Shown: in pieces, positions 5,712 to 32,350 of the stretch
Layout of the letters: every line of letters begins with the position of its first letter
Position numbering within the stretch: the first letter of the stretch is position 1
The notes under the pieces: model-generated
The model's database searches: none
What the model saw: only the letters and a program-made list of their open reading frames with translations
What the model was told of the DNA's origin: nothing
Origin: a virus
Lineage: Duplodnaviria > Heunggongvirae > Uroviricota > Caudoviricetes
Length of the DNA: 64,000 nucleotides
Virus record (IMG/VR): IMGVR_UViG_3300045988_154997
Span: 37,871-101,870 of that record
Direction: 5' to 3' (one strand)
Program-made: the position numbers and the translations under genes

Positions 5712-5713
5712 AG

Positions 5714-5895: not shown

Positions 5896-5899
5896 AGAG

Positions 5900-6200: not shown

Positions 6201-6276
6201 TGGTGCCGGTTAACGGACTCGAACCGCTGACATCCTGCTTACAAGGCAGGCGCTCTACCAACTGAGCTAAACCGGC
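6201..6276 (-). tRNA. tRNA-Thr (anticodon UGU)
   Basis: 76 nt GCCGGTTTAGCTCAGTTGGTAGAGCGCCTGCCTTGTAAGCAGG...GGTTCGAGTCCGTTAACCGGCACCA; perfect acceptor and anticodon stems; CCA encoded. Confidence 0.8.
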
Positions 6277-6280
6277 AATT

Positions 6281-6367
6281 TGGTGGGGAGTGATGGAGTC
6301 GAACCACCCGAGTCGCAATGACAGTAGATTTACAGTCTGTCCCGCTACCTCTACGGACTAACTCCCC
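6281..6367 (-). tRNA. tRNA-Tyr (anticodon GUA, type II), atypical anticodon stem
   Basis: 87 nt GGGGAGT...ACAGA-CTGTAAA-TCTAC...GGTTCGACTCCATCACTCCCCACCA; resembles E. coli tRNA-Tyr but the two outer anticodon-stem pairs are C-A / A-C. Confidence 0.65.
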
Positions 6368-6372
6368 TAAAT

Positions 6373-6447
6373 TGGCGATGGTGGGTGGATTCGAACCACC
6401 GACCAGTTGGTTAACAGCCAACTGCTCTACCGCTGAGCTACACCATC
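6373..6447 (-). tRNA. tRNA-Asn (anticodon GUU)
   Basis: 75 nt GATGGTGTAGCTCAGCGGTAGAGCAGTTGGCTGTTAACCAACTGGTCGGTGGTTCGAATCCACCCACCATCGCCA; canonical cloverleaf. Confidence 0.8.
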
Positions 6448-6637
6448 AATTCAGCACTGCCAGTATTTATTACTCAACAGTGCCAATCGCGGCGGTGTTA
6501 GTTTCTGCCAGGAAACACACCGCTACTGGCACTTTCCGTTAGTGCCAGACGTTTTCGACTTCGCTCAATAGAAGGCAAAATCTTTAAGTAGATGATGTTT
6601 CTGAGGACAGCACCTACTTTGTAATTTATACAATGTG

Positions 6638-6654
6638 ATGTATGGAATCATTTG
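6638..6654. promoter_or_regulatory. 17-mer GATGTATGGAATCATTT (copy 1 of 2)
   Basis: Identical 17-mer at 7650-7666; shares its 13-mer with the operator palindrome at 1825-1857. Confidence 0.4.
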
Positions 6655-6711
6655 TTGTGAAAACAGGCACTAATGGCAACAGTGGTTAAACCTATACAAC
6701 AATCCTGTCTT

Positions 6712-6833
6712 CACAACGTTGAGGCCACTACTCCGATTGAATGTTTGCCCAACATGTTACATATCAACGCTCGCCGGTATCTCTGTGAATAGAACCTTAG
6801 AATTGATAAAAATGTAATGGCCTCAACGTTGTG
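6712..6833. repeat. long inverted repeat (15-bp arms CACAACGTTGAGGCC / GGCCTCAACGTTGTG, ~92-nt spacer)
   Basis: Read directly; arm sequence is related to the 5806-5895 IR. Confidence 0.5.
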
Positions 6834-6909
6834 TGCTGGCTAACCATACCAGCCGGGCTACGTCGCCGCTTTTTAACCCAGTATAAACGACATAATTGAA
6901 CAAAATGAC

Positions 6910-6989
6910 GTAACAGGATGGGCGGTCATTGGCTAAGAATCCGGGAGTCGTATATGAGTTGAAAATATACTGACCGCCCATTCTGTTAC
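6910..6989. repeat. inverted repeat (19-bp arms GTAACAGGATGGGCGGTCA / TGACCGCCCATTCTGTTAC, 1 mismatch)
   Basis: Read directly. A further 8-bp-stem hairpin (GAGGGAAC-TCTCAT-GTTCCCTC) follows at 6997-7018. Confidence 0.5.
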
Positions 6990-7193
6990 TTCATCGGAGG
7001 GAACTCTCATGTTCCCTCCTGCGTTCTGCAATCACACTCGCTCAGTGTGTCCCATTTCGGTAACGAGGCTGGAAACTGACCTCGCTGGTGTTTGGCTTAT
7101 TAGGCTACTGCCAGATAGACTTCTTCGTTTGCACTTGTATTTAAGTTCAAACAGTCGCGTCTCAACGAAAACAAAGTCATCTTATACATAAAA

Positions 7194-7219
7194 GATAGGT
7201 AAGTAAATACTTATTATTG
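7194..7219. promoter_or_regulatory. dispersed motif copy (GATAGGTAAGTA + TAAGTA-aa-TACTTA)
   Basis: Contains the reverse complement of TACTTACCTATC and a TAAGTA..TACTTA palindrome; just downstream of the gene ending at 7225. Confidence 0.35.
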
Positions 7220-7224
7220 TATTT

Positions 7225-7515
7225 TTATTCGGTTGTGACTTTTTTGATCAAGGCCACTCTACGACTAGGTGTTCTTGTGATGGTGGCAGTGAATTGTTTC
7301 GCTTGGATAGTAATGGTTTCGTTCTCCTTAAGTTGCCCGTAGCGAGTTTCCACCAGGGTGCCAAGACGCCACAGACCATCATCGATACGTTTATGACTAG
7401 CAAATTTAATCAGCAACAGTTTTACGACTAACTGACCTACGTAAAAGGCGAATGCGACTCCGGCCGCTAAGAAATAGGTGACCAACCACCATTCCCAAGA
7501 AGTTAACTTGCTCAT
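7225..7515 (-). CDS. small membrane protein (hypothetical)
   Basis: 96 aa with hydrophobic segment WEWWLVTYFLAAGVAFAFYVG; start overlaps the upstream stop as ATGA. Confidence 0.5.
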   Translation of the reverse strand: MSKLTSWEWWLVTYFLAAGVAFAFYVGQLVVKLLLIKFASHKRIDDGLWRLGTLVETRYGQLKENETITIQAKQFTATITRTPSRRVALIKKVTTE

Positions 7516-7664
7516 TTTTTCACCTTTGTTTCATGAACTACTCGATACACGCGCTTTCCGATGCACAGTGTTTTGGTTTTAAGTTCCTGCTTAATCAAAT
7601 CATGACAGATGCCGAAGCCGATAAGGAAGCCAGCCATAAAAGCCAATGAGATGTATGGAATCAT
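7512..7664 (-). CDS. small hydrophobic protein (50 aa; below the ORF-track size cutoff)
   Basis: Hand-translated MIPYISLAFMAGFLIGFGICHDLIKQELKTKTLCIGKRVYRVVHETKVKK; ATGA overlaps at both ends. Its start lies inside the 17-mer motif. Confidence 0.35.
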   Translation of the reverse strand: MIPYISLAFMAGFLIGFGICHDLIKQELKTKTLCIGKRVYRVVHETKVKK

Positions 7665-7876
7665 TTAAAGGCTCCTGATTCTACTAATTGCTGTAGCAAT
7701 AATTTCCCTTTATCAGTTAACTGGTAGTTGGCCGAGCGCCACGTTTCAGAAACGTTTGCAACCAACCCTAAACGCTCTAACTTAGCTCGCGTTTTAGGCT
7801 TCCAGTACTCAGGGAACTCCGGCCACTTACTTATTTCATGAAGCGTTTCTTTCTCCCGTTTACTTAATACGATCAT
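7661..7876 (-). CDS. hypothetical protein
   Basis: 71 aa ORF; start overlaps the ligase stop (7873-7876), translationally coupled. Confidence 0.45.
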   Translation of the reverse strand: MIVLSKREKETLHEISKWPEFPEYWKPKTRAKLERLGLVANVSETWRSANYQLTDKGKLLLQQLVESGAFK

Positions 7877-9195
7877 TCTTTATCTCCGATTCGATCTTCG
7901 GTATCGCGTAAGCAACGCGGCCATTTCAGTCGTGGGTGGCGTAAGCTGCCATCAGGTGTTTTCTCGTGACAATGAACCTCGACAATACGACCACGGTACT
8001 TCTCTTTGTTGTTCCAGATCTCGTCCAGATATTTATGCTTAATGCCGCTCGCACGAACGATGACGCCGTTTTCAAGACGAATAACAATTTTCCCAAGCGT
8101 GTTGGCAAAACCAGAGTCCGGGTCGCCCGGCTCAAAATCGATAATTTCACCATCTTCTGAATCTTCGTCTTTTAACTTCCACCAGCTGCGGGTACGTTTA
8201 AACTCGTAAACAGAGTTCGGATCTTTGCCCATCTCCCCTTCTTCGTTATCGTCCAGGCGTTTCATGAAGCGTTCGATGAAGTCTTCGTGGCTATGGATGA
8301 TGTAGAACGGATGCAGGTGAATGTCTTGTGCGTAGCCTTCACTGCGATCGTTTTTGAACAACGCCACGAGCATAGCCAGGCGCTCTTTCAGCTTCATACC
8401 TGTCTTTGCATACTCTTTGGATTTAGCCTGTGCTCGCCATTCCGGTAGGAAGAAGTCGAAAACATGATAAATAGCGCCAATTGCCTGCACGTTCTTTTTG
8501 CGCAATGCAGATACGGACTGGTTAAATGAACCGGCTGTGCCTTCACCATCGAAGAAGATGTGTTTGTGGCCTGAAAGTTTGCCTAATTCGAGCATGGCTG
8601 GCTTTAGGTGATCGAGAGACGTGATTGGATTACCAGTACGAGAAAGGAAGTTAACCTCTTCTTCGTCAACAATAACCTCGCAAATTACTCGCAAACCATC
8701 GAGCTTAAGGCTGCCAATCATCGGCCATTTTGCTTTAGGGTTTGGCTTGAAGGGGTATTTGTCGCCTTTTTCTTTATACGGTGACGCCAGCTGCACCTCG
8801 AATTTCGGAATGGGATTTTCAAAAACCTTGTTGCATAGGCTAATCCCAACGCCAGCTTTCGGATCTTTTAAGAGGAAACGACGGAAGACGTCCTGCCCAT
8901 CGGCGCACATTGACGCCACGATAGACTCAACAGCAGCTATTGCTGCGTTCCCCGTCAGCTCGCGAGAGGCCAGCTTATTCAGTACATCAATGGCTTTTTC
9001 GTCACTTGGGACGGACTCACTAAGCGGCTCTGCCACTTTGTATTTCTTTACCCCAAAACGGATGAAAGGGTTGAGCATCAATGAAACCATGCTTTGTTCA
9101 AAGTCATCCATGTTGGCCAATGCCTCTTTTTTTGCATTGGTTCCCATAGCTTTCATTTCGTCCAGCTTATGCTTAAGTGCGATCAACTTTTTCAT
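7873..9195 (-). CDS. ATP-dependent DNA ligase
   Basis: Adenylation motif I KLDGLR (SLKLDGLRVICEV); C-terminal GSLRHPRLKWPRCLRDTEDRIGDKE typical of ATP-dependent ligase OB-domain ends. Confidence 0.8.
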   Translation of the reverse strand: MKKLIALKHKLDEMKAMGTNAKKEALANMDDFEQSMVSLMLNPFIRFGVKKYKVAEPLSESVPSDEKAIDVLNKLASRELTGNAAIAAVESIVASMCADGQDVFRRFLLKDPKAGVGISLCNKVFENPIPKFEVQLASPYKEKGDKYPFKPNPKAKWPMIGSLKLDGLRVICEVIVDEEEVNFLSRTGNPITSLDHLKPAMLELGKLSGHKHIFFDGEGTAGSFNQSVSALRKKNVQAIGAIYHVFDFFLPEWRAQAKSKEYAKTGMKLKERLAMLVALFKNDRSEGYAQDIHLHPFYIIHSHEDFIERFMKRLDDNEEGEMGKDPNSVYEFKRTRSWWKLKDEDSEDGEIIDFEPGDPDSGFANTLGKIVIRLENGVIVRASGIKHKYLDEIWNNKEKYRGRIVEVHCHEKTPDGSLRHPRLKWPRCLRDTEDRIGDKE

Positions 9196-16006: not shown

Positions 16007-17203
16007 TTAAACATCTTTTAGAAAGCCTGGAAACCAATGTTTCATGATATACCTAAAATGTGCTCTAGTTGGTTCAAAAACCTGTCTAGATACCAGCGCT
16101 CCATCAGGATGATTCTGAACAGACTGTTCTTTTTCCATATCGTAAAAATTATGAGTTATCTCTGGGGGGAAGAAAATATTTCTGTCCAGTGGCACTGTCG
16201 CAAAAGGATTGTAGTAAATATGAAGGCCGTCAAAGTGCGTCTCTTCATGAGCAGTGGAATGGCAAACTACAATATCCGCACCAGTGACTTCGTTATTTAA
16301 AAAATGCCGATATGTAGTGATGAAATGATCAGGACCTATCCTTTGTGTGTGCTTTCCCTCGTTTTTCATCCCTTCATTGGCGATGAAATCATTCACATCA
16401 ATGGCTCGATATCGTGTTGACCTTACATATCTACCGATACCGCTTTGAACCACGGCTTTTCCAAAAGTGCCGGTGGTGGAGAAAATAACCGCACTTATTT
16501 CTTTATATGAGTCGTTAGTAAATATACCTAATGGAATTTCAACGTCTTCATTCTTTTTGATTGAGGTAACTTTAGTTTGGCTGCCAGTCACCAAATTTCT
16601 GGTGGTAGGTTCCTCAATGCCAAACAACACTCGATTGATGATTGTGTTATTTTGAGACAATGATAAATCGGAGTCAAAGGGTGCAAGCGCCAGAACAAAC
16701 GGCTTATTAACTACATGAGACATCGTAGAGTACGGGAATTTTTTGCCATTAACTCCTGTAAAAAGATCATGTTTGTCTTTGATTTTTCCGATTAATTTTA
16801 GCGTTGATTGATGTTTGAATTTTGATTCGCTAAAAAGAGCACCTGCAGGTGGATTATGTGGCCGATCTGATATCACAGCTTCGACGTTAAACTGGTAGCC
16901 TGACGGTGTAGTAACACAGAAATCGGGACTGTCTTTTGTGTAGTCGACAGAATAATCGAGACGAATAAACATTTCGTTCAGATACAATTCCCATAAGGCG
17001 GAATTGAAGGTTGTCTGAAACTCTTTAACGAATTTAGTCTGCTCACCGCTACGCTCCAGTAACCCACGCCCCCACGACTGTATCACTTCTCTTACTGGAG
17101 CATATGTATTATCTTGATAAATCTGTTTAAAAGATTCGTGCAGCTTGTTTTTTGCTATTTTGGTTGAGAACAAATCCATTATTAGCCTCACTAACCAGTT
17201 CAA
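16007..17203 (-). CDS. hypothetical protein (398 aa), partner of the DUF2971-like gene
   Basis: Long ORF, moderately AT-rich, no motif recognised; immediately downstream of the DUF2971-like gene on the same strand. Confidence 0.45.
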   Translation of the reverse strand: MNWLVRLIMDLFSTKIAKNKLHESFKQIYQDNTYAPVREVIQSWGRGLLERSGEQTKFVKEFQTTFNSALWELYLNEMFIRLDYSVDYTKDSPDFCVTTPSGYQFNVEAVISDRPHNPPAGALFSESKFKHQSTLKLIGKIKDKHDLFTGVNGKKFPYSTMSHVVNKPFVLALAPFDSDLSLSQNNTIINRVLFGIEEPTTRNLVTGSQTKVTSIKKNEDVEIPLGIFTNDSYKEISAVIFSTTGTFGKAVVQSGIGRYVRSTRYRAIDVNDFIANEGMKNEGKHTQRIGPDHFITTYRHFLNNEVTGADIVVCHSTAHEETHFDGLHIYYNPFATVPLDRNIFFPPEITHNFYDMEKEQSVQNHPDGALVSRQVFEPTRAHFRYIMKHWFPGFLKDV

Positions 17204-17245
17204 TAAGAAAAGCGCCCAACATAATCATTTGAGGAAAGTCTGGAG

Positions 17246-17965
17246 CTACTTCAGCTTTTCTTTGACAAGAAGATAACCATCATCAGGTGTACTCATTTTG
17301 TAAACCTCGATGCTCGTGTCTAGCTGTGTCCGGGCATATTCTTCTACTTCAGGAGAAACGTTATACCCAAGAATGATCTCTCTAATATATTTCTTATCAA
17401 ATGCCTGAGCGCCTATTTTTTTAGTAATAACCCTTTGTTCTTCCTCATATTTCCAGCATTCGTGCTTGTAGAAAAAGAGCTTATCAAAAAGTACCTTAAA
17501 CTCATCTGTAACTTCATCGAACACGGGAACAGAAGGTATATATTTCACATTATCAAAGCTGTGATACCCCTCAATAGAGGTAACAAAATCATCATCAAAG
17601 CCTATGCAGAAACCTTTATGCGACACTGAGTAATGTGACCACATCAAGATGTTATCTTCGTTTGGTGACAAGCACACCACACCAAAAGCCCCTAATGATT
17701 CTTTCCGCAAATCCACAGCCAACGATTTTGCAGCTTCAGGAGCTACAGCATCCCAGTCTTCAAAGGAAAAATCCTTACATCCATTGTCTTCAAAGTGTTT
17801 CCGGCGCTCCACTTCTGTACCTCCCATCGTTATCGAAACTTTGAACTCTGATGGGTCGTTGAATGAAGAAGGTGCGCTAGCAGAGATAGTGCCGTCCTCT
17901 ACAAACCGTTTGAGGTTACGTAACACTTTTTGCGAATCTTCACTTCCAATATATTTGTAGAGCAT
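17246..17965 (-). CDS. DUF2971-like protein
   Basis: First ATG gives MLYKYIGSED...SSFNDPSEF...NILMWSHYSVSHKGFCIGFD; the LYKY / FNDP / MWSHY pattern matches my recollection of DUF2971. Track start 18004 is TTG. Confidence 0.45.
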   Translation of the reverse strand: MLYKYIGSEDSQKVLRNLKRFVEDGTISASAPSSFNDPSEFKVSITMGGTEVERRKHFEDNGCKDFSFEDWDAVAPEAAKSLAVDLRKESLGAFGVVCLSPNEDNILMWSHYSVSHKGFCIGFDDDFVTSIEGYHSFDNVKYIPSVPVFDEVTDEFKVLFDKLFFYKHECWKYEEEQRVITKKIGAQAFDKKYIREIILGYNVSPEVEEYARTQLDTSIEVYKMSTPDDGYLLVKEKLK

Positions 17966-18009
17966 TAGGGAACCTATAGAAAGAGGTGCCAAGCAGCACC
18001 TCAATAAAA

Positions 18010-20549: not shown

Positions 20550-20789
20550 TTATGGCACTTTTCTGCCCCATCCACACAATCGCTCCCCTATCATATTGTG
20601 AAAAAGTACTTCCCTTTCAGTCTCTTCGGTCATGAGATCATCACGGCTGATGTATAGCGGTGTAGCCGCATCGCAGAAAAGCACACCAGAGGATTGAGGC
20701 TTAATCACGCAACCACTTATTGTGCAACTCATGATGAACAGTAGAAGCATCTTTGCGCCGTAACTCATCAAGTGTTTCATTTTTGACAT
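20550..20789 (-). CDS. outer-membrane spanin (Rz1-like lipoprotein), overlapping the i-spanin
   Basis: Internal start MSKMKHLMSYGAKMLLLFIMSCTISGC gives a signal peptide and lipobox; the frame overlaps the 3' part of the i-spanin gene. Confidence 0.45.
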   Translation of the reverse strand: MSKMKHLMSYGAKMLLLFIMSCTISGCVIKPQSSGVLFCDAATPLYISRDDLMTEETEREVLFHNMIGERLCGWGRKVP

Positions 20790-20952
20790 CCACTGTGCTT
20801 TGAAGTCGTTTCCTGTCTTCCTGTTTTGCCTTCTCTTCCATTGCTCGTCGCGCCGCATTTCCGCCCATCGTGTAAGCGCCGACCAGAACGAAAAGAACGG
20901 CAGCCAGCGTAATCAAAGCAACTTTTAGCTTTGTCATCAGGCTGCCTAGCAT
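20701..20952 (-). CDS. inner-membrane spanin (Rz-like)
   Basis: 83 aa; N-terminal TM segment ALITLAAVLFVLVGAY followed by charged coiled-coil; directly downstream of the endolysin. Confidence 0.5.
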   Translation of the reverse strand: MLGSLMTKLKVALITLAAVLFVLVGAYTMGGNAARRAMEEKAKQEDRKRLQSTVDVKNETLDELRRKDASTVHHELHNKWLRD

Positions 20953-20953
20953 A

Positions 20954-21673
20954 TTAGACCATCCCTTTCTGGTGTCTTCTTACCTGCGACCAGGCGATAA
21001 ATCCAGCCACAACAATAGTGGCAATACCGAAGATGATGCGTACTGTATCCCCACTAGAGATATGACCTTGTGCTTTATCCATAGCAGCGGAAACCTGCGG
21101 CATAACATCGGCCAGCTGCGCCAGACCAATACCTGCTGTAACAGTTGCGCCTGCTGTTTCTTTAGTTACAGGAACAGCCTTCACGGTTTTCACCGGCTTA
21201 ACGACGCCAGCTCGACGCAGACCTTCCTCAATAACTTCTGCCGCATACCAGGTGTTCAGCGTTTTTAGCGGACCTCGCCCATTCTCATGGCGAATGATTG
21301 CCTCAACCAAAGGTCGAAGAATGTCGTAATCATGCAGATCGATGATCATGTCTGCGGTTACACCAACGGCTTTAGACACCTCATTAATGTAGGCGTCAGT
21401 GTTGTTTTCATTCGGCGGTGCCCAACGTTCAATAACTTCACGAATGGTATCGATACTTGAGCCGTCTTTTGCGCGACGTTTGTCGTGGTAGGTAATTAGA
21501 GTCACCGCCAGCGCACGAATCCCCCAAACAGGGTCTTTAAACGTGCAAAAGCGCGGTTCGTCTGGATTCGCAACCAGACCTTGCCACGGTGATCCTTTAT
21601 CAAGATTACCGGGGTTATTATTACGAATGCCTCTCGGAGTCTTCATCCTTGATCTCCTGTTATTGCAGTCCAT
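20954..21673 (-). CDS. putative endolysin (peptidoglycan hydrolase) with C-terminal TM segment
   Basis: Position in the lysis cassette; N-terminal GIRNNNPGNL motif (recalled from phage lysins, unverified); C-terminal hydrophobic VRIIFGIATIVVAGFIAW. Confidence 0.45.
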   Translation of the reverse strand: MDCNNRRSRMKTPRGIRNNNPGNLDKGSPWQGLVANPDEPRFCTFKDPVWGIRALAVTLITYHDKRRAKDGSSIDTIREVIERWAPPNENNTDAYINEVSKAVGVTADMIIDLHDYDILRPLVEAIIRHENGRGPLKTLNTWYAAEVIEEGLRRAGVVKPVKTVKAVPVTKETAGATVTAGIGLAQLADVMPQVSAAMDKAQGHISSGDTVRIIFGIATIVVAGFIAWSQVRRHQKGMV

Positions 21674-21995
21674 TTTTTACGCCATACGCGGCTAACCCCA
21701 AAAGCAGTGCAGTAATAAAGAACGACGTTATTTTAGAAACAATGCCGCCAAAGAACCCACTGGAGATGGAATCTAACCGGTTAAGGAGTTTGTCCAGATT
21801 GGAGTGTTGAATACTATGTTGCGCCGGGGTCATATCACCAAAGTAGGTTTTCAGCTGATCATTGACCTCCTGGCCAATTTCTTCACGTAGCTCTTTACCT
21901 AATTTGCCAACAACCTCCCGAGCAACGATCGCGGCAATACGCTCAACTTGCTCTGTTGTAACGCTCGCCATCTCGTTCGACATGTTTTCCTCCAT
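21660..21995 (-). CDS. holin-like membrane protein (putative)
   Basis: 111 aa with C-terminal TM segment SKITSFFITALLLGLAAYGV; directly upstream of and overlapping the endolysin. Confidence 0.35.
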   Translation of the reverse strand: MEENMSNEMASVTTEQVERIAAIVAREVVGKLGKELREEIGQEVNDQLKTYFGDMTPAQHSIQHSNLDKLLNRLDSISSGFFGGIVSKITSFFITALLLGLAAYGVKNGLQ

Positions 21996-22051
21996 GAAAA
22001 GTCAAATCGGGATGGCGGATTTATATCACATTTCACCCTTTTGTTGTAGGT

Positions 22052-22069
22052 GTGTACTTACCTATCATT
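22052..22069. promoter_or_regulatory. dispersed motif copy GTGTACTTACCTATCATT
   Basis: Upstream (~60 nt) of the holin-like gene start. Confidence 0.4.
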
Positions 22070-22298
22070 CAGCATTGCAACGAACTGATGAGAAAGCACC
22101 TACTCCTACCCATCGCCAGTTATAGATGCTACCCGCTTTGTATAAGGTATAGTCGTTCACTTTTTTAACAGCATATATGGGTATGACTGTCTCCTGTCCA
22201 CCAATGATAGCCTCACCGTAACATATAGGTGTCGGCAATTTCTGGCAGCCAGTAAGAGAGAGAACAACAGCTATTGTTAGAAATAATCTTTTCATCAT
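22065..22298 (-). CDS. small lipoprotein, candidate superinfection-exclusion (Cor/Llp-like role)
   Basis: 77 aa, lipobox MMKRLFLTIAVVLSLTGC; sits between the tail-fibre genes and the lysis genes. Confidence 0.5.
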   Translation of the reverse strand: MMKRLFLTIAVVLSLTGCQKLPTPICYGEAIIGGQETVIPIYAVKKVNDYTLYKAGSIYNWRWVGVGAFSSVRCNAE

Positions 22299-22305: not shown

Positions 22306-22914
22306 TCAGTTATACAGATTTCTATTTATTACCGGTACTCTGCCATTTACGCTAAAACTATGGCCGCCATTAAGTTGGTTTACGAATATCGAGCTAACAG
22401 TATTTCCATATGCCGCATATCCATAAACCATTGTCATGGCCCCGCCCGGTACTGGAACCGCGAACACATTTGCATATGTTGGGATTATCGCTGGCGGGTA
22501 ATCAAAAACATGCCCTCCAGAACTGTTCCACTCCGTATTATTAAGAAAGGTAAATGAAAGTGGGATATTTGCCGTATTATAGATCTCCTCTCCTCGCGCA
22601 TTGAAAAAACTCATGCCCCAAGTTTCTTTTTTGGCTATACCTTTCGAAAATACGTATATCGTGGCACTAGAATCGCTACCCTGACCTCCGAAACTGTAAA
22701 TCACCTGGTTGTTACGCACTATTCTGTTGGCTATTAATGAAACAGCTTTCGAATAGGCAACAAAAATCATCGGTGAACGATCTGGAGATATTTGGGTGTT
22801 AAACTCTGTCCCGCCAGACAAAGAAACAACCTGCTTTCTCTGAAAAACGATAGGAGACAAAGAAGGAGACATCCAGACCTTCCCGTCAGATCGATATATC
22901 TTGCTTCCGTACAT
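22306..22914 (-). CDS. tail fibre-associated protein (hypothetical)
   Basis: 202 aa, Gly/Ser/Asn-rich; coupled (TAATG overlap) to the upstream 84-aa gene, downstream of the tail fibre. Confidence 0.4.
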   Translation of the reverse strand: MYGSKIYRSDGKVWMSPSLSPIVFQRKQVVSLSGGTEFNTQISPDRSPMIFVAYSKAVSLIANRIVRNNQVIYSFGGQGSDSSATIYVFSKGIAKKETWGMSFFNARGEEIYNTANIPLSFTFLNNTEWNSSGGHVFDYPPAIIPTYANVFAVPVPGGAMTMVYGYAAYGNTVSSIFVNQLNGGHSFSVNGRVPVINRNLYN

Positions 22915-23168
22915 TATTTTTGAAAAACCAATATGTTTAAATTGCCACTAGCTCCAGACCATGAAATGGTATTTCCAGAAACCGTAAGACTTGTGTATTT
23001 CCCATTGGTTACGTCCATTATGTAATAGTCGATTCCCAATCCCGCCTCAACCTCATATGTTCTACTTCCTGAACCAGAGGGAGTAAAATAATCGAGGTAA
23101 TAAACAGGGGCCAACGCATCGACCATCTCCTGTCTTGATGGCGACCAAACCTGTGCACCATAGCTCAT
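22914..23168 (-). CDS. hypothetical protein (tail fibre region)
   Basis: 84 aa ORF directly downstream of the tail fibre gene. Confidence 0.4.
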   Translation of the reverse strand: MSYGAQVWSPSRQEMVDALAPVYYLDYFTPSGSGSRTYEVEAGLGIDYYIMDVTNGKYTSLTVSGNTISWSGASGNLNILVFQK

Positions 23169-23228: not shown

Positions 23229-26200
23229 TTATTCTTTAGGTGAATTTAACTTCGTTTCAAGCTCCTCAACCCTTTTGGTCAATTGCTGAATATGATGAAT
23301 GAGTGGTACAACCAAACGCTCATACATCACTCCTTCAGCGACCATACCATTTGAGGAAATATCTCCTGGAGAATCATTATTTGTTGGTTCACGCCAATGG
23401 ACATATTGCGGGGCAATCTCACCAACCTCTTCAGCAATAAGGCCGTAATACCCCCAATCCTTTCGGTCACCTCGACAAATTGAACGATACCAAACAGGTC
23501 TTAATGACAAAAGTTCATCAGCATATCGATCTTGTAATGTTTCAATATCCTTTTTATAGCGCCTTGAAGATGTTGAACGCCAAACTGTATTGATACCTGG
23601 GTTTGGATCAATGTACATATTGGCACCGCTAGTAGTTGTGCCAATATCCCATATAGCAAACCCTCCACTACCGCCTGATTTGACAACCAGTGTTTCAGCA
23701 ATAATATCCAGGTTGCCACTATAGCCTGTCAGTGATGATCTGCTTGCATAGGAACTTAGAAGGTTTGTTACCTCTGTTTTCGTATAAGCATTAAGGTTAG
23801 CCGCAGTCAAAGTAATATCGGCAGAGCCATCAAACGCCACACCAGCAATTTTCCTTGCTGTCTGCAATTTTGTGGCTGTTGCGGCATTACCAGTAGTATT
23901 CTGATTACCGGTTGTATTCACACCAGGGATTGAATCCTTAGCGGTATATACCTGCGCCCACGCTGACCATGCCGCATCAGTGGTATCTCTTCTGGAGCGA
24001 ATGAAAACCGGCGCATGTGCACCGCTCGTACCACTCCAGCCAATAAGCAACTCGCCCTCACCAGCAGCACTCGCACCTTTCATGTGCAATACGTTGCCAT
24101 ACGTGGTCGGGTAGCTATTGTTGTACGCCTCGTACATTTGAATGCCAGCAGTACCTTGAGTAGAACCGCTTAAAGCCGTAACTCGACCACGAGAAACCAA
24201 TGTATTAATATTGATATCACCTGAACCATCAAACTTAACACCATTGATGTTTCTCGCTGTTTGCAACTTCGTAGCTGTTGAAGCATTGCCATTCAAGCTA
24301 CCATTTACGCCACCAGTAACATTTAGTCCATTACCAATAGACACAACACCGCTGCTATTATTAATTATAATCGGTCGCAAACTGTTCCATGAACCTAACG
24401 TATCTCCTGATGCTGTTAGCATGAAATATGTGCTGCCGCCGTCATTACGGATAAAGAACCCGTAGTTACCGTAAGCAATGCGGAAACCATTTGCATATTT
24501 TGAAACGATCTCACCAGAAGACGTTAACCCTCCAGATAATGTGCCACCTGAAAGCGGTAATGCTCCTACATCAGAAGCTGTTGGTTTGTTTCTAGTGTTA
24601 TAAGAACGACGCCAGCCTGGTGCATAATCACTTCCATTGTACACATAAATAAATTCCGCATTGTTAACACCACCATGACCCGATGTTGTTGTCGTTGTAA
24701 CACGAATAGTGTAGTGGCTTGTTGCCTTATTACTAAACACCTCAATCACGGAACCAGATAGATCGATCCTACCGCAACCAGTGTCGTCTATATAATTATT
24801 GTTGGCGTAAGTCCATGAGCACCGTGCGATCCAATGTTTGTTTGTAAATGCCCCCTGATTATTTAGCCAAGTTATAAATTGAGCAGTCGTAAATGCCGTT
24901 CCGTTACCACTATTTAACCATCCAGCGGCAGCGGTTGGCGCGTTTATATCAGCCGGCTGAGGCATAAATCCAGTCGTGTAAACCTGCTCCCAACCACTTT
25001 CAAAACCATAGCCATCTCTTGAGGAACGGTAGAACAGACCACCATTTTTATAGTGAGCTTTAATTTGAAGCGTACGGCAACTACCTACACCGGTATAAAA
25101 GTTGGCAAGAATATAACTGTCGCCTGTTCTAGTTACATTGTAAGCACCAGATTCAGCATTCCACGGCACGCCACCATCAGCATCCGCATATGACCCTGTT
25201 GCCCTTCTTGCGAAAGCGGCAACATGCGCAGCGGTTAAAGTGATATCAGTAGAACCATCAAATGGAACACCGGATATTTTTCTTGCAGTCTGAAGTTTTG
25301 TAGCAGTTGCAGCATTACCAGTGGTGTTCTGATTACCCGTAGTGTTTACACCTGGAAGGTTGATATTTGCAGAACCGTCGAAACCAACTCCACCGATAGA
25401 TCTTGCCGTCTGCAATTTCGTTGCTGTACTTGCATTACCATTTAATGTTCCGGTGATCCCACCAGTAACAGACAACGGACCTGAAACTGTTCCTCCGGTT
25501 GTTGGCAGTGCTCCAATATCTAACGGCGTCGGTTTCTGATGTGTGCTATACATCGTATAAACAACACCATCGGTAACGCTGGAAGGCTTACTCGCTGAAT
25601 ATGTTGGCGATGTATAAATAGAAACTGACGCATTTGCAGTACAATCCCAATGGATATTTACACTCGTCGCATAATTGCCAATTTCAACGTAAATATCATA
25701 TGTATCGCCGGATGTGTTGATCCAGGCGAAATTCGTTAATCCGACAGCTGTACGCTTCCACAAAGCACCTGTAATCCCTTTGGGGTTTCCATTGCCTGCT
25801 CGTAGAACCAGTTCTGAAATGCCTGCCTGATGTGGGGAGCCGACGTTGTAACCAGCGCCACCAATCAATGCGATGTAAACGATGGAACTCGCTTGTGGCA
25901 TTGTAACAGTAGCCAGTTTGAACCACCCGGCCCCGCCAGAGAAAGACATCGTTATTGAATTTAAAGTACCAATATCTTTCGGCGTTAATGTGATATCCGC
26001 AGTCAGTGCTTTCCCGTTAATTTTTCGGTTAGATGGCACCCTGCTGTTCGCATTGTCATTGACTACTTTAACTGCTTTTGGCGTTGCGGCCAGCGATTCA
26101 CTGGTGCTGTCGACAGCACTGCTAAGTTTCACAACACCTTTAGTTGTAAGGCTTGCGTCTTCCATCGCAACTGCACCGGCAATCTCTTCAGCACGATCAG

Positions 26201-27527
26201 CAGCAGCTTCCGCACGGGTCGCAGCGGATTCAGCAGCAGTTTTGCTCTGAGATGCTGCCGTCGCACTGCCTGCCGCCTCTGTTGCTTTCGTGGATGCCGT
26301 CGTGGCGCTGCCCTTCGCTGCTGACGCCTGTCTGGTCGCCTCATCTTTTGAAGCAGACGCAGATGATGCCGATGACGCCGCCGAACTGGCGGACGATGCG
26401 GCAGCCGTTTTTGAGGATTCTGCGCTGGTTTCCGACGCTTTCGCGTTCGTTTCGGATGTCTTCGCTGCGGAAGCAGACCTCGCTGCTGCGCTGGCCTGTT
26501 CAGTGGCTTCGCCAGCCTTCGTTGTGGCTGTTGAAGCAGACGATGCGGCACTTTCTGCCGATTTTCCGGCGGCGGTGGCACTGGCTGAGGCCTGCCCGGC
26601 ACTTGTTGACGCGGCACTGGCAGACGACGCAGCCGCTGTTTTTGAGCCTGCCGCAGCCGAGGCGCTCTGTCCCGCTGCCGTTTCAGAAGACCTGGCGTTC
26701 GTCTCGGACGTTTTTGCCGCCTTCGCGGAATTTCCTGCCGCCGTTGCCGAGGAAGCGGCATTACTGGCGCTCGAGGCTGCGCTCGTTTCTGATGATTTCG
26801 CTGCCTCTTTTGAGGCCGCCGCATCCCGGGCTGAGGTGGCAGCTTCTGACGCCTTCGTGGTCGCGGTGGATGCAGAAGTGGCTGCAGATTTTTGTGACGC
26901 TGCAGCATTCGTTTCAGACGTTTTCGCGGCACCGGCACTGGTGGCCGCCGCGCTTTTTGAGGACTCTGCAGCGGATGCACTTTGAGACGCTTGAGAGGCT
27001 TTTTCTCCAGCGGTATTGGCGCTTTCTGCTGCTGCGGCAGCACTGGCCGCCGCCTCACGAGCTTTGTCGCCAGCAGCATCAATCGCGTCAGTGTTATTTT
27101 TATACCACTCAACGTTTTCGTTGTGCTCGTTGACGATCTGCATTAGCGGCTTAACGGTCACTTCTGTACCGTCTTCACGCTCGATTGTCACCTCATCCAG
27201 AGCAGTCAACCAACTGCGCATGGACTTGGAATCAGCCGACATACGCGACATTAGTGCTGTAAAGCGCGCGCTAAACTGTGTTAAGTCGCCTTCATAGGTC
27301 GTAATGATTCGGCACGGAACTTCAGACTGAGTTTCGCCGGTATAAGGTTCTGAGAGAACAATGTTCGTATCACTGGTTACGCGCTTGATCTCATACAGCT
27401 TATTGTCGGGGCCAATGACGATCATCCCCGGCAACACACCATTAGCTGTTACGTTCCAGGCTGTCCCTGCCCCAACCAGAGTATTGCTGCCCTGTGTAAA
27501 TGTGATAGTACCTTCCCTGTACCACAT
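23229..27527 (-). CDS. long tail fibre protein with C-terminal intramolecular chaperone (S74-like) domain
   Basis: 1432 aa: N-terminal Ala/Ser-rich low-complexity region, four copies of a GNASTATKLQTARxIxGVxFDGSxDI fibre repeat, C-terminal RYKKDIE...GLIAEEV autoproteolytic chaperone-like domain. Confidence 0.8.
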   Translation of the reverse strand: MWYREGTITFTQGSNTLVGAGTAWNVTANGVLPGMIVIGPDNKLYEIKRVTSDTNIVLSEPYTGETQSEVPCRIITTYEGDLTQFSARFTALMSRMSADSKSMRSWLTALDEVTIEREDGTEVTVKPLMQIVNEHNENVEWYKNNTDAIDAAGDKAREAAASAAAAAESANTAGEKASQASQSASAAESSKSAAATSAGAAKTSETNAAASQKSAATSASTATTKASEAATSARDAAASKEAAKSSETSAASSASNAASSATAAGNSAKAAKTSETNARSSETAAGQSASAAAGSKTAAASSASAASTSAGQASASATAAGKSAESAASSASTATTKAGEATEQASAAARSASAAKTSETNAKASETSAESSKTAAASSASSAASSASSASASKDEATRQASAAKGSATTASTKATEAAGSATAASQSKTAAESAATRAEAAADRAEEIAGAVAMEDASLTTKGVVKLSSAVDSTSESLAATPKAVKVVNDNANSRVPSNRKINGKALTADITLTPKDIGTLNSITMSFSGGAGWFKLATVTMPQASSIVYIALIGGAGYNVGSPHQAGISELVLRAGNGNPKGITGALWKRTAVGLTNFAWINTSGDTYDIYVEIGNYATSVNIHWDCTANASVSIYTSPTYSASKPSSVTDGVVYTMYSTHQKPTPLDIGALPTTGGTVSGPLSVTGGITGTLNGNASTATKLQTARSIGGVGFDGSANINLPGVNTTGNQNTTGNAATATKLQTARKISGVPFDGSTDITLTAAHVAAFARRATGSYADADGGVPWNAESGAYNVTRTGDSYILANFYTGVGSCRTLQIKAHYKNGGLFYRSSRDGYGFESGWEQVYTTGFMPQPADINAPTAAAGWLNSGNGTAFTTAQFITWLNNQGAFTNKHWIARCSWTYANNNYIDDTGCGRIDLSGSVIEVFSNKATSHYTIRVTTTTTSGHGGVNNAEFIYVYNGSDYAPGWRRSYNTRNKPTASDVGALPLSGGTLSGGLTSSGEIVSKYANGFRIAYGNYGFFIRNDGGSTYFMLTASGDTLGSWNSLRPIIINNSSGVVSIGNGLNVTGGVNGSLNGNASTATKLQTARNINGVKFDGSGDININTLVSRGRVTALSGSTQGTAGIQMYEAYNNSYPTTYGNVLHMKGASAAGEGELLIGWSGTSGAHAPVFIRSRRDTTDAAWSAWAQVYTAKDSIPGVNTTGNQNTTGNAATATKLQTARKIAGVAFDGSADITLTAANLNAYTKTEVTNLLSSYASRSSLTGYSGNLDIIAETLVVKSGGSGGFAIWDIGTTTSGANMYIDPNPGINTVWRSTSSRRYKKDIETLQDRYADELLSLRPVWYRSICRGDRKDWGYYGLIAEEVGEIAPQYVHWREPTNNDSPGDISSNGMVAEGVMYERLVVPLIHHIQQLTKRVEELETKLNSPKE
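26130..27110. repeat. low-complexity GC-rich coding repeat (Ala/Ser/Thr-rich part of the tail fibre)
   Basis: Repetitive GCx codon runs; produces three long artefactual antisense ORFs in the six-frame track. Confidence 0.7.
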
Positions 27528-27619: not shown

Positions 27620-30600
27620 TTACAGAAGGCCAATTCTTACTCGTAGGACGTTGTTATCGTCATAAACGTCAATCCGCTGACCATTTATGACCAGTCGCCC
27701 ATTACCCCCGCTATTACCGTTGATCTCAAGCGTTCCATTTTTGCCGAACCGCCATCCAGATCTACCGCTAACAAAATTGGTAGATTGCAGATCGCCTACT
27801 TTTGCATTGGTGATTGTGCCATCCTTGATATACGCACCATTCATATAGGCGATACTGTTTTCGATAACAAATGGCGTGGTGATCTTCCCGTTAACAGAGT
27901 TGACCAAACCAAACCTGTCAGCCTGCACCAAAAACTGAGAAAGGCCAGTGGTGTCGATACCAAGCGCAATACCAGCAACATACTTCTGCCCTCCGCTCGT
28001 TGAAGTTTCCATTTTCAACGTCCACGCGGTTGACACTTTTTTGTTGGTATCAGCAATAGCTGTTGCCTGCTGTTGAATTGTCGCGGTATTTCCATCCACC
28101 TCTGCTTTCAGAGTATCGATTCGCCCACTCAGAGCATTATCTGCCTGCGTTCTCGCTGTCGTTTCAGTTGTTACCGCCGCGGAAATGTTGGCTGCCGTTT
28201 GAGACTCTAAGTTTGTGATTTGAGTCGCCAATGCAGCATCTTGCTCTGTACGCGTTTTCGTTTCGGTTGCTACAGCCGCTTTAATATCCTCTTTGTATTG
28301 AGAGGTCAGCTTGGTGATCTGAGACGACAACGCCGAGTCAGCATCAGTTCGAGCCTGCGTTTCAACTGCAACGGCCGCACTAATATCTTTCGCTGTCTGT
28401 GCTTTTAAACTTGAAACCTCTTTTGTTAAAGCGGTATCACCATCAGCACGAGCCGTTGTTTCTCTGGCAAGAGATGCCTCGAGATCATTAGCTTTTGCTG
28501 TAAGAGACGAAATCTGAGTGGACAATGCACTATCGGCATCAGTCCTTGCCTTTGTCTCTACAGCAACCGCTGCGGCAATATCAGTTCCGGTTTGTGCTCG
28601 CAGGCTGTTAATTTCTCGTGAGAGCGCCTGGTCAGCACTTGCTCTGGCCTCCTGCTCCTGAGTGATGGCAGCGGATATATCACCGTCAACCTTTGACTGA
28701 AGCTGGTTTATTTGTTTGGCTAACGCAGAGTCCCCGCTTGCTCGGGCCTCCTGCTCACTACGTATTGCAGCAGAAATATCATCATCAACCTTTGCCTGAA
28801 GTTGGGTGATCTGGCTTGCCAGAGCCGAATCTTCCGTTGCTCGGGCTTCTTGCTCTTCCTTAATAGCTGCGACGATATCGTTGCTTACTTTCGACTCAAG
28901 CTGAGTGATCTGTGTCGTCAGAGCTTCATCGGCAGATGTGCGAGCCTCCTGCTCTGTACTAATCGCCGCGCTGATATCTCCTTCAAACTTAGATTGCAGC
29001 TGAGTGACACGCTTTGCCAACGCTTCATCGCCATCGGCACGAGCGGTGGACTCTTCCAGAATACTGGCCTTAATGTCTTCGCCAATTTCTACGCGAATTT
29101 CCTCAACCTTCGTGGCCATTGCAGACATATCATCAGCAAAGGTTTTCTGTGTTGTTGCGATCTTCGCGTTATTGACCATCTGCTTGTGCTGGTCTTCATC
29201 TTGACGAAGAGCCAGGTCAATATTTGTTTTGGCTAACGCCTCAATGTTCGTAGTCAGTTCTGCACTGGCACGATCGACCTCTGCAACCGTCTTTTTCATT
29301 TCTTCAACGGCAGCGGAGCTTTCCTCTACCGTTGACTGCAACACTTCCAGTTGTTTAGCGTTTGCAGCATCGCCTTCAACACGAGCCTCGCTTTCCTTAG
29401 CAATAAGAGCCGCCGCTTCATCTCTTGCAGCCTTTATTGCCTCGACTGTATTAGCGAGAGCTTTATCGTGTTCAGATACGGTGTTTTCGATTTCAACAAT
29501 TGCAGCATCAGTAGCATCAATTTTTTCAAACGCTTCATTGACCTTGTCGATCGTTGCCGAAACCTCACCTTTAAGCTCGGTTTGTGCGTTCTCCAAAGCA
29601 TCGCTACGCTCGTTGAATTTTATTTCAAAACCCGCGAGGTTATCGCTGAACTGCTTATCTAATTCAGCTATATCTTCCTTAACGTCGTTTACCGACCCCT
29701 CCAAAGATTCGACGCTCTGGTTGATATGCTCATTTAACTCGTCAACTGCTTCTTGAGAGGCTTTGCTGTTGATGTCCTCAAGCAGAGCCTGACCAAGCTC
29801 GGAAGATGTAATTTTGCCAGCCAGGAACGACAGTACATCGCGAGTTGTCGCCTCTGTACCCAAGTTTGAGTTCGGAGGGCTTAACATACCTCGCTTGTTC
29901 GATGCTCGAACCCAGTAATACCACGTTTCGCTATCCCCAAGACCAGCATGTGTAAAGGTGGTGCTTGCAGACTCTGCGATCAGTTTCGCCGTATCCAGAT
30001 TGTTGGTCTGGGATGCGTAAACATTAATGTGATCAAGGTCTACCGAATCTGGATTAACCCAATTCAGTATCACATTACGATAGTCTCCAACGGCCGTTAA
30101 TGACGTTGGTGCATCCGGCGGTGTCATTGTGCCCAGCACCTGATAAACGGTACTGATAATTTCTGTTTTTTTACCGTTGAATGAAACCGCATACAGTTGG
30201 AAGTCGTAGCGTCCATTCTCCGCGACATTAACGATTTCGTATTGCTCTTCGGTTACACGCGCCGATTGCCAGTTCGATACATTGTTTTCATCAGAACGTC
30301 GCCAACTGATCCAATACTCTGGAGATTTCCCTTCCCATGTTGCAGTCAGTTTTACTGACAGGTTGCCCGGGCTTGAGAGGTAAGTCCCTTCAGTGATTTG
30401 CAAATTAGACGGCTTGGAGTAAGTCGGGTCCAATACCGTCGTATTCTGCGGGATAAGCGTTGCACCATTGTCGATCGCCTCATATTTAGACGGATTGTTT
30501 TCAACAGCGGTGATGTCAAAGCTACCCGACGTTTCCCCCTGAGCGATGTTAACGATGCGAACGCGCATAGGTTCGAGATCTGGTTCTGTAATTGTCCAGA

Positions 30601-32350
30601 CACCGTTCAAAACAGGCGTTTCCGCTGACGACAGAGCTTTTGAAAACGTAACCTTTGTTATGTTTTCGCCAGTTTCAAGAACATCGCGCTCAACGATTTT
30701 GCCTTCCTGATTCAATATCCGAATAAAGCTGCCGCTTTTAGCTAACGACACAGGCGCATCGAGAGTGATGCTGTTTTTGGTAAACTCCACAATTCGACCG
30801 GAGTTACGTTTACCTGCACGATATTTGTTCTGAATCAGAACGGTTTCACCGGGCATCAGAAATGAGGCGTCTAAGCCGGCAGTAAATGTAATTACATCCG
30901 ACTCCATTCTGGCGGTATACAAAAGCCACAAACCAACTCGGTGAGCCTGGCCTCGGCTTGTACATCCAAATGCTACGACTTCTGTTTTACGCTCACCATA
31001 ACGGCGCATTGCGTCCTGATCTTCAACGTACTCGATATTTTGCTTATAACCGTCCTCCTTGTTGTTGTAGGTTACGAGCGCAACGGATGGGCGATCTTTA
31101 CGCGCAGAACCTTTATAGGTAAACAGTCCATCTTTGACGTTGGAGTTGGTAAACATCATTACCGGATCTGATGGGCTATCCTGCATGATGTTAACCATGC
31201 CACCAGCCCAAAACACCATGCCGCGGAATGCACCGGCAATATCCTGAATTAATCGGTATGCGTCTTGTCGACTGGTGATCTGCGTATTGATTGCAAAGCG
31301 TTTCTCTTTACCCCCAAAGCCATCATCGACCTCTTCGTCACAATATCGACCAATCTGGTAGAGCTGGCCGAGGTCAATCATGGATTCCGACACAAATTGC
31401 CCAAGACCATACCGAGTATTGGTAAGCAAATCGTAGAGAATCCACGCAGGGTTTGAAGAAGACAACAGCTTAAAAGTACCGTCCCATACGCCGACATAAG
31501 TATTGGTGTATTCGTTGTAGTTTGACGGTACTCGGATTTTGATACCGCGCACCAAATACGAACGGGAAGGCATTGTGCTACCAAACTGCTCTGAATTGAC
31601 CTTCAAGCCAACAAGAGCAGAGTTAGGGTAGTTCATTGGCGTGTCGACAATCTCACCGATGGAATCAACCCATGTGTCGTTGTAGAGGTACTGGCTACTG
31701 TTATCATCTGTAAGACGAATCACCCTAACCTTGTATGCACGACCAGGCTTAGGTAGTTTCAGCTCATAGCTACGGTAATACACGCCTGTTTTCTTTGCCG
31801 TTAGCGTGATATCAACGCTTTTCTCACCTTCTGCCACCACATCAGAAAATGTTGCGTCTCCGTTGGCGATCTGGAATTTGTACTTCACCGTAGTGCCATT
31901 TGTATCGCCAGAGCTTTTATCAACGCTACGTAAAGAGGGGAATTTCATGATGACACGAACGCGATCAGCTTCATCGTTATCGATTGAAACCGTAACGTCG
32001 TGTGTTTTTTTAAGCTGAATATTTACGGACTTAGGCGTTTCAACAAAATCAAAACCAGCCATTGGCGTCTGGTCTTGTGAGCCGTCACGAAAATCCCATG
32101 TAATACCGCTGAAGTTGGAAGAGCCATCTTCATTCAAGATCGGTAAATCGTCGATGAAGATCGACTTTGCGCCATTTACCAGGCCACCGATAACCCCCTC
32201 GCCAAGAAGGTCGAGGATGGCTGCCATAGCACGAGAATTGACAGTATCATCAGCTTCAACCGGGGTACGGCTGGAGCTTTTACTTTTCTTGCCACCAGCA
32301 CCGGCAATAAGAAGCGGTAATTTTTTCTTCTTGAACTGTTCCATGTCCAA
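27620..32350 (-). CDS. J: central tail fibre / tip attachment protein J with inserted tandem-repeat region
   Basis: N-terminal half aligns by eye to lambda gpJ (YPNSALVGLKVNSEQFGS, AFGCTSRGQAHRVGLWLL, KYVAGIALGIDTTGLSQFLV); contains ~10 tandem ~33-aa repeats. Confidence 0.85.
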   Translation of the reverse strand: MDMEQFKKKKLPLLIAGAGGKKSKSSSRTPVEADDTVNSRAMAAILDLLGEGVIGGLVNGAKSIFIDDLPILNEDGSSNFSGITWDFRDGSQDQTPMAGFDFVETPKSVNIQLKKTHDVTVSIDNDEADRVRVIMKFPSLRSVDKSSGDTNGTTVKYKFQIANGDATFSDVVAEGEKSVDITLTAKKTGVYYRSYELKLPKPGRAYKVRVIRLTDDNSSQYLYNDTWVDSIGEIVDTPMNYPNSALVGLKVNSEQFGSTMPSRSYLVRGIKIRVPSNYNEYTNTYVGVWDGTFKLLSSSNPAWILYDLLTNTRYGLGQFVSESMIDLGQLYQIGRYCDEEVDDGFGGKEKRFAINTQITSRQDAYRLIQDIAGAFRGMVFWAGGMVNIMQDSPSDPVMMFTNSNVKDGLFTYKGSARKDRPSVALVTYNNKEDGYKQNIEYVEDQDAMRRYGERKTEVVAFGCTSRGQAHRVGLWLLYTARMESDVITFTAGLDASFLMPGETVLIQNKYRAGKRNSGRIVEFTKNSITLDAPVSLAKSGSFIRILNQEGKIVERDVLETGENITKVTFSKALSSAETPVLNGVWTITEPDLEPMRVRIVNIAQGETSGSFDITAVENNPSKYEAIDNGATLIPQNTTVLDPTYSKPSNLQITEGTYLSSPGNLSVKLTATWEGKSPEYWISWRRSDENNVSNWQSARVTEEQYEIVNVAENGRYDFQLYAVSFNGKKTEIISTVYQVLGTMTPPDAPTSLTAVGDYRNVILNWVNPDSVDLDHINVYASQTNNLDTAKLIAESASTTFTHAGLGDSETWYYWVRASNKRGMLSPPNSNLGTEATTRDVLSFLAGKITSSELGQALLEDINSKASQEAVDELNEHINQSVESLEGSVNDVKEDIAELDKQFSDNLAGFEIKFNERSDALENAQTELKGEVSATIDKVNEAFEKIDATDAAIVEIENTVSEHDKALANTVEAIKAARDEAAALIAKESEARVEGDAANAKQLEVLQSTVEESSAAVEEMKKTVAEVDRASAELTTNIEALAKTNIDLALRQDEDQHKQMVNNAKIATTQKTFADDMSAMATKVEEIRVEIGEDIKASILEESTARADGDEALAKRVTQLQSKFEGDISAAISTEQEARTSADEALTTQITQLESKVSNDIVAAIKEEQEARATEDSALASQITQLQAKVDDDISAAIRSEQEARASGDSALAKQINQLQSKVDGDISAAITQEQEARASADQALSREINSLRAQTGTDIAAAVAVETKARTDADSALSTQISSLTAKANDLEASLARETTARADGDTALTKEVSSLKAQTAKDISAAVAVETQARTDADSALSSQITKLTSQYKEDIKAAVATETKTRTEQDAALATQITNLESQTAANISAAVTTETTARTQADNALSGRIDTLKAEVDGNTATIQQQATAIADTNKKVSTAWTLKMETSTSGGQKYVAGIALGIDTTGLSQFLVQADRFGLVNSVNGKITTPFVIENSIAYMNGAYIKDGTITNAKVGDLQSTNFVSGRSGWRFGKNGTLEINGNSGGNGRLVINGQRIDVYDDNNVLRVRIGLL
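28060..29010. repeat. tandem ~99-bp repeats inside the J gene (encode the 33-aa DISAAIxxEQEARxxAD repeats)
   Basis: Near-identical segments recur with 99-bp spacing (e.g. GCTCGGGCCTCCTGCTC at ~28737 and ~28836). Confidence 0.7.

Follow-up and report, generated by a model that had tools for sequence, protein, structure and literature searches.

A small lipoprotein gene beside the receptor-binding genes of a phage raises the question of whether its product closes the host cell to superinfection and, if so, through which receptor. We addressed this question for such a gene within a 64,000-nucleotide stretch of caudovirus DNA (IMG/VR record IMGVR_UViG_3300045988_154997), which we refer to as the window. 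Homology, synteny and predicted fold support the identification of the gene as cor, and it very probably encodes a Cor-family exclusion lipoprotein of an SSU5-like Escherichia coli phage-plasmid, with a predicted exclusion activity. The 1.4 kb around cor are 100% identical to E. coli plasmids, e.g. pEc2-51408, and because of this identity we assign the window to an SSU5-like phage-plasmid of about 112 kb.

The cor gene and its neighbourhood

The features on which the analysis is based are the following:

22065..22298, minus strand: cor, Cor-family phage exclusion lipoprotein (longest ORF 77 aa; PHROG 1119, NF047972, RefSeq)
22245..22298, minus strand: lipoprotein signal peptide, residues 1-18 (regex and alignment; weak LPAM_1 match)
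22306..22914, minus strand: 202-aa 'membrane associated protein', PHROG 425, homologue of N15 gp23 and T1 ST31 (E 5.5e-49)
22914..23168, minus strand: 84-aa 'outer membrane protein', PHROG 557, homologue of N15 gp22 and T1 ST32 (E 1.3e-24)
23229..27527, minus strand: side tail fibre, 1432-aa ORF (Pfam Gp34_trimer and Peptidase_S74, an intramolecular chaperone)
27620..32350, minus strand: J-like central tail-tip protein of the TipJ family, 1576 aa (Pfam FNIII-A_GpJ, Phage-tail_3 and Phage_Tail_Tip; RefSeq 'TipJ family phage tail tip protein')
20550..21995, minus strand: lysis cassette directly downstream of cor (PHROG endolysin and spanin matches; SSU5 and Cyrano annotation)
21660..21995, minus strand: holin-like gene (annotated as holin in SSU5 and Cyrano)
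20954..21673, minus strand: endolysin (PHROG match)
20701..20952, minus strand: Rz spanin (PHROG 1026, E 1.7e-23)
20550..20858, minus strand: Rz1 spanin (PHROG 1275, E 8.9e-23)

In the ORF list, cor appears as an ATG-initiated frame at 22065..22298 (minus strand) with the 77-aa translation MMKRLFLTIAVVLSLTGCQKLPTPICYGEAIIGGQETVIPIYAVKKVNDYTLYKAGSIYNWRWVGVGAFSSVRCNAE. An earlier note on this DNA, made from the sequence alone, had described a 77-aa lipoprotein gene at this position; the ORF, the signal peptide and the lipobox were confirmed, with the refinement that a product of 76 aa is likelier. The true start is probably the second ATG at 22295, because the first ATG is ACG in one natural plasmid variant, all homologues align to M2, and RefSeq gives the gene 231 nt in three records and 234 nt in one. 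The frame itself is evidently a real gene and not a chance ORF, given family matches down to E 2e-30 and its preservation in three diverged E. coli plasmid variants. These variants share 97.6-98.7% identity, all carry an intact cor and show 2 amino-acid changes for 6-7 nucleotide changes.

The genes for J, the side tail fibre, the 84-aa protein and the 202-aa protein lie upstream of cor on the same strand, and the holin-like gene, the endolysin gene and Rz/Rz1 follow downstream. The placement of the gene between tail-fibre genes and lysis cassette, as the note had it, holds broadly, with two small genes intervening on the fibre side. Of these, the 202-aa gene ends 7 nt before cor, and its start codon shares 1 nt with the stop codon of the 84-aa gene, likewise in N15, HK022, phi80 and T1. 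As the middle gene of the cor cassette, it encodes a putative receptor-binding or accessory protein. This gene is probably annotated 14 codons too short (188 aa) in RefSeq plasmids and in SSU5 (8381..8989), because the longer form restores the 1-nt overlap, its N-terminal residues align with the homologues, and tblastn matches the SSU5 DNA from residue 1.

Several features of the larger neighbours were also recorded. The side tail fibre ORF contains an Ala/Ser-rich low-complexity stretch of about 330 aa, which gives rise to long spurious ORFs in other frames, as well as repeated 'GNASTATKLQTAR' motifs, and its start is placed later in RefSeq (3915 nt compared with the 4299-nt ORF). In the J-like protein, several hundred residues of repeats ('ISAAI..EQEAR..') separate the fn3 domains from the tail-tip domain.

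Beyond the lysis genes, a 398-aa protein (16007..17203, minus strand) matched the PADLOC anti-phage defence model PD-T7-5 (E 1.5e-139), and a 252-aa DUF2971 protein (17246..18004, minus strand) matched the candidate defence family PDC-S31 (E 2.3e-38). Both genes sit between replication/helicase backbone genes and ParA/ParB-like partition genes. The related phage PhiR41_1 has another gene, in opposite orientation, at this place, which gives the region 16007..18004 the appearance of a variable defence islet within the phage-plasmid. None of the PADLOC models matched cor or its 84-aa and 202-aa partners.

Lipoprotein signals and predicted fold

The N-terminus of the product begins with a basic MMKR, followed by a hydrophobic core, the lipobox L15-T16-G17-C18 and a Gln. 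The LTGC of the lipobox fits the pattern [LVI][ASTVI][GAS]C in a regex search, and the +2 residue is Gln, with no Asp at this position. Under the Lol sorting rule of E. coli, lipoproteins with a +2 residue other than Asp are directed to the outer membrane, and the Gln at +2 thus leads us to expect sorting of Cor to the outer membrane. In Pfam, which holds no Cor family, the search of the protein returned only a sub-threshold match to the lipid-attachment model LPAM_1 (residues 2-19, 17.3 bits against a cutoff of 20).

The AlphaFold (AF2) model of the protein consists of a helix at residues 3-14 and a compact beta-rich domain at 26-74. In an alignment of 90 homologues, the invariant columns are C18, C26, G56 and C74; besides the lipobox cysteine, the window Cor thus contains the two further conserved cysteines of the mature domain, C26 and C74. 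The structural study of T5 Llp (PMC9586334) describes an intramolecular disulfide common to Llp and Cor, to which Cys26 and Cys74 correspond as a predicted bond.

Assignment to the Cor family

The protein matched PHROG 1119 'Cor superinfection exclusion protein' with E 2.3e-30, residues 2-76 covering positions 1-76 of the 78-position profile. The NCBIfam equivalog NF047972 'phage exclusion lipoprotein Cor' was matched with 80.7 bits (cutoff 31 bits), residues 2-75 aligning to positions 1-77 of 78. A tblastn search hit 169 phage records, and among the matches listed most are annotated as Cor or superinfection exclusion; the identities were 59% for SSU5, 47% for HK022 and 42% for N15. In a large protein collection, a single-sequence search found 4 matches owing to a word index limit, and a query with a six-sequence Cor alignment found 263. 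Together with the synteny described below, the matches to PHROG 1119 and NF047972 confirm the Cor family for a protein that had been proposed, from size and position, as a Cor/Llp-type superinfection-exclusion lipoprotein.

Over its whole length the window Cor is 42-47% identical, and in its mature portion 45-47%, to the Cor proteins of HK022 (gp27), phi80 (gp24) and N15 (gp24), with which it shares a length of 76-78 aa and the lipobox Cys plus two further invariant Cys. It departs from them in the core motif A-G-Y-P-F, which reads A55-G56-S57-I58-Y59 in the window, S-I-Y thus replacing the near-invariant Y-P-F of the lambdoid proteins. The consensus residues P58 and F59 are present in at least 90% of Cor members and represent a conserved motif, not a curated criterion. 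Their loss is common only to the clade of the window itself, comprising SSU5 and Traversvirus phi315 (I-Y, V-F or H-Y). Judged from the alignment, the missing P-F marks a Cor subfamily and does not exclude membership.

The homology check proposed in the earlier note named Cor and Llp alike, and its outcome was divided: the match to Cor extends over the full length, whereas sequence similarity to Llp was not significant. A Cor profile searched against PDB sequences gave Llp (8a60_B) with E 0.37, in an aligned stretch that begins with the signal peptide, and a Foldseek search of the model against the PDB returned no significant match. The predicted fold is nevertheless closest to T5 Llp complexed with FhuA (15% identity in the structural alignment), and the model shows the small beta domain that characterizes the Llp fold. 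The window Cor is thus predicted to have an Llp-like fold, but since the sequence similarity is not significant, it is no demonstrable member of the Llp sequence family. A further difference lies in the genetic context, as T5 Llp (PDB 8A60, 7QJF) is the product of an early gene of a strictly lytic phage, in contrast to the window cor on a phage-plasmid.

Another exclusion protein whose gene adjoins the receptor-binding locus is Rtp45 of phage Rtp (PDB 9RPS). According to PMC12685063, it changes the conformation of the LptD receptor so that the receptor-binding protein cannot bind, and a 2026 preprint places it on the periplasmic face of LptD. Its target LptDE sets it apart from Cor, and it is likened to Cor by the described logic.

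Conservation of the three-gene cassette

The order of the 84-aa gene (PHROG 557), the 202-aa gene (PHROG 425) and cor is that of gp22-gp23-cor in N15 and phi80, with gp25/gp26 as the counterparts in HK022. In HK022, phi80 and N15, as in the window, cor follows the gp22 and gp23 homologues on the same strand; T1 also has this gene pair, but its cor is encoded on the other strand. Section 2.5 of PMC13164509, citing Wietzorrek 2006, describes the three-gene cor cassette in the FhuA-dependent phages T1, HK022, N15, ES18 and phi80. The same paper calls the function of the two genes upstream of cor itself unproven. In the BASEL collection, as presented in PMC8594841, loci downstream of gpJ are treated as dedicated receptor-binding genes with cognate exclusion proteins.

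Conservation of the partners is strongest with SSU5, the type member of the phage-plasmid group. The 202-aa protein is 74% identical to its SSU5 homologue, 29% to that of Warwickvirus swan01 and 20-24% to those of N15, phi80, HK022 and T1; for the 84-aa protein the values are 69% for SSU5, 36% for swan01 and about 27% for N15 and T1. The positional orthologue of cor in SSU5 is SSU5_025 (JQ965645), annotated as 'Cor-like protein', with 59% identity across the whole protein and 63% for its mature portion. Both elements arrange these genes alike (J, tail fibre, [adhesin], 84 aa, about 200 aa, cor, holin, endolysin, Rz/Rz1), except that SSU5 has an extra adhesin gene, and its only reported receptor is the LPS core.

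Placement and spacing of the cassette differ from the lambdoid phages. In the window it stands after the side tail fibre gene and before the lysis genes, whereas in lambdoid phages it follows directly after J and precedes the side tail fibre gene. The gap upstream of cor is 7 nt here compared with about 108-111 nt in HK022, N15 and phi80 (record coordinates), and the short gap leaves no room for an intergenic promoter of cor's own. The HK022 gene was labelled 'moron gene product' by its annotators, i.e. a separate unit, whereas the window cor adjoins the 202-aa gene. Because of the 7-nt gap, we suggest that cor is co-transcribed with the putative receptor-binding genes rather than forming a separate 'moron' unit of the HK022 type.

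Around the cassette, 3 promoter-like sites were found compared with 4.2 expected from shuffled sequences, and no terminator was detected after cor. The spacer between cor and the holin-like gene folds no better than shuffles (z = +0.9), i.e. without a terminator hairpin. As no promoter or terminator signal above chance flanks cor, expression in the plasmid-prophage state is unsupported by these data. Two sequence elements were noted in the 69-nt spacer (21996..22064, minus strand): an extended -10-like sequence (TGATATAAA), which the consensus scan did not flag, and a strong Shine-Dalgarno GGAGG for the holin-like gene.

Exchange of the host-range module among relatives

The closest phage records, PhiR41_1 and Cyrano, are 94-98% identical to the window across the partition and lysis genes, and this match ends at 22066, at the stop codon of cor. 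In PhiR41_1, the DNA identity of 98% is lost at 22066 and is not regained before about 27040, a position within the 5' region of the tail fibre gene; unrelated small genes, with no lipoprotein among them, replace the cassette. Because identity to PhiR41_1 breaks at the cor stop and resumes inside the tail fibre gene, cor travels with an exchangeable host-range module composed of the side tail fibre and the cor cassette. The cor genes of the window and SSU5 have diverged strongly in comparison with their neighbours, with a nonsynonymous difference (pN) of 0.29 compared with 0.02 for the adjacent holin-like gene; pN and pS are given here in place of dN/dS, which was not computable owing to saturated synonymous sites (pS 0.78-0.84).

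Two further genomes carry parts of the cassette in other arrangements. In Warwickvirus swan01 (1951..3115), homologues of the 84-aa and 202-aa genes are preceded by a different, 89-aa lipoprotein gene, and the trio is convergent with J. This lipoprotein has the lipobox LTGC and two further Cys, and its likeness to Cor is confined to the signal-peptide region (residues 2-23). The pairing of homologous 84-aa/202-aa genes with a different lipoprotein suggests that the putative receptor-binding protein pair and the exclusion lipoprotein are exchanged independently. Traversvirus phi315 (1481..8201), a Stx-phage-like podovirus, encodes the closest Cor outside the SSU5 group among the matches listed (58%). 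Its cor follows a tail fibre and adhesin pair, and genes of the PHROG 557/425 type are found about 3 kb beyond it, behind a second tail fibre gene, so that this lineage has a split cassette.

Proposed mechanism of exclusion

Localisation, receptor binding, receptor identity, exclusion phenotype and time of expression of the window Cor are what we infer in the following model. The model has the precursor exported and then lipidated on Cys18, after which signal peptidase II would cleave it, leaving Cys18 as the first mature residue. By analogy with Llp, mature Cor would reside as a lipoprotein at the inner leaflet of the outer membrane. There, its beta domain of about 59 residues, stabilised by the Cys26-Cys74 disulfide, would bind the periplasmic face of the phage's terminal outer-membrane receptor. 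As for T5 Llp on FhuA, binding is proposed to close the extracellular phage-binding site of the receptor allosterically: the extracellular loops would fold inward, and the phage receptor-binding protein could no longer bind. In T5, Llp binds the periplasmic face of FhuA and closes the extracellular loops 7 and 8, and PMC9586334 describes this inward folding of the loops upon docking of Llp. Cells carrying or replicating the element would no longer adsorb this phage or others sharing the receptor, and losses of progeny to debris would be avoided.

Probable target receptor

On balance, FhuA is the most probable target of the window Cor. This best guess is based on the 45-47% identity of its mature part to the FhuA-linked Cor proteins of HK022, N15 and phi80. 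These three are themselves only 29-43% identical to the FhuA-linked Cor proteins of T1 and JLBYU60, less than the window protein is to them. As reported in citing papers, exclusion of FhuA-dependent phages and inactivation of FhuA are known for Cor of mEp167, HK022, phi80 and N15 only, and family members expressed alone inactivate FhuA (Uc-Mass 2004; Arguijo-Hernandez 2018).

Alternatively, the protein could be a Cor-family receptor blocker with a target other than FhuA, for example the TonB-dependent BtuB or YncD, or the receptor of the 84-aa/202-aa pair, which we regard as possible but less than probable. The two partners resemble their counterparts in Warwickvirus swan01 (36% and 29%) more than those in N15, phi80, HK022 and T1 (20-27%), and Warwickviruses from one laboratory are reported in PMC10373560 not to use FhuA as sole receptor; the swan01 lipoprotein, however, matches Cor only over the signal-peptide region. 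Cor-like proteins are also described in BtuB-targeting Tempevirinae and in Markadamsvirinae (PMC13164509), but according to the same paper every BASEL phage with the full three-gene cassette (10 of 10) uses FhuA. The SSU5/phi315 clade has swapped the near-invariant P-F for I-Y, V-F or H-Y, and its member phi315, with the closest relative outside the SSU5 group among the matches listed, is a podophage with different tail genes. Against a changed target stand the wide margin by which the window Cor passes the NF047972 equivalog cutoff and its position within the sequence range spanned by the Cor proteins of known FhuA phages.

A more specific form of this alternative is that the SSU5/Traversvirus Cor clade, with S-I-Y in its core motif and Warwickvirus-like 84-aa and 202-aa partners, represents a retargeted cassette that blocks a non-FhuA outer-membrane receptor, a tentative idea that we consider unlikely. 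If true, it would reveal the protein receptor of SSU5-like phage-plasmids as well as the residues that set Cor specificity.

For SSU5 itself, PMC12312913 (citing Kim 2014) reports binding to the LPS core oligosaccharide through the tail fibre gp22. The literature searched held no receptor or exclusion findings for E. coli SSU5-like phage-plasmids or PhiR41_1. The C-terminal domain of J was considered as a clue to receptor specificity and set aside as uninformative, being a generic Phage_Tail_Tip domain common to more than 1700 phages with many receptors.

Other roles of the lipoprotein

Two readings depart from the exclusion function altogether. In the first, the lipoprotein would assist in the structure or assembly of the tail tip, being present in the virion together with the 84-aa and 202-aa proteins and not acting as an exclusion factor in the host cell. 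The tight coupling of cor to the putative receptor-binding genes, with a 7-nt gap and no sign of its own promoter, would agree with such a role, as would the unproven function of the two upstream proteins themselves (PMC13164509). A lipidated protein anchored in the outer membrane is, however, an unlikely virion component, the homologues inactivate FhuA when acting alone in cells (Uc-Mass 2004 and Arguijo-Hernandez 2018, as cited), and cor and the tail genes of T1 and JLBYU60 occupy opposite strands; on these grounds we rejected this very improbable role. A lysis function as an Rz1-like outer-membrane spanin of the adjacent cassette, which a small outer-membrane-type lipoprotein encoded on the same strand 69 nt upstream of the holin-like gene might bring to mind, is extremely improbable and was likewise rejected, since a complete Rz/Rz1 pair is already present at 20550..20952, the protein matches the Cor family strongly and no spanin family, and PhiR41_1 and Cyrano keep a near-identical lysis cassette (94-98%) without cor.

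Distribution in E. coli and biological meaning

The name of the gene is already public: at the same position in the 100%-identical plasmid stretch, RefSeq carries the entry 'cor: phage exclusion lipoprotein Cor' (WP_001308877.1). The Cor family is long established, with work going back decades (Uc-Mass 2004 and Hernandez-Sanchez 2008, via citing papers), and annotation pipelines call it, so that the identification as a Cor-family lipoprotein is conceptually nothing new.

Within a set of 5426 complete E. coli genomes, the flanking region was found in 206, and the cassette is present in 68 complete genomes, plasmid-borne in every one. On plasmid NZ_CP145681.1 (37267..44303), IS2 interrupts the cassette upstream of cor, and only the segment from window position 22065 to about 22680 remains contiguous. 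In this plasmid the 202-aa gene is thus naturally knocked out, with cor preserved intact.

E. coli commonly harbours SSU5-like phage-plasmids. The presence of a Cor gene predicts a protein receptor for these elements, of which none is established in the literature searched. Furthermore, cells carrying cor may be resistant to FhuA-dependent phages, among them T1- and T5-like phages used in therapy or occurring as contaminants.
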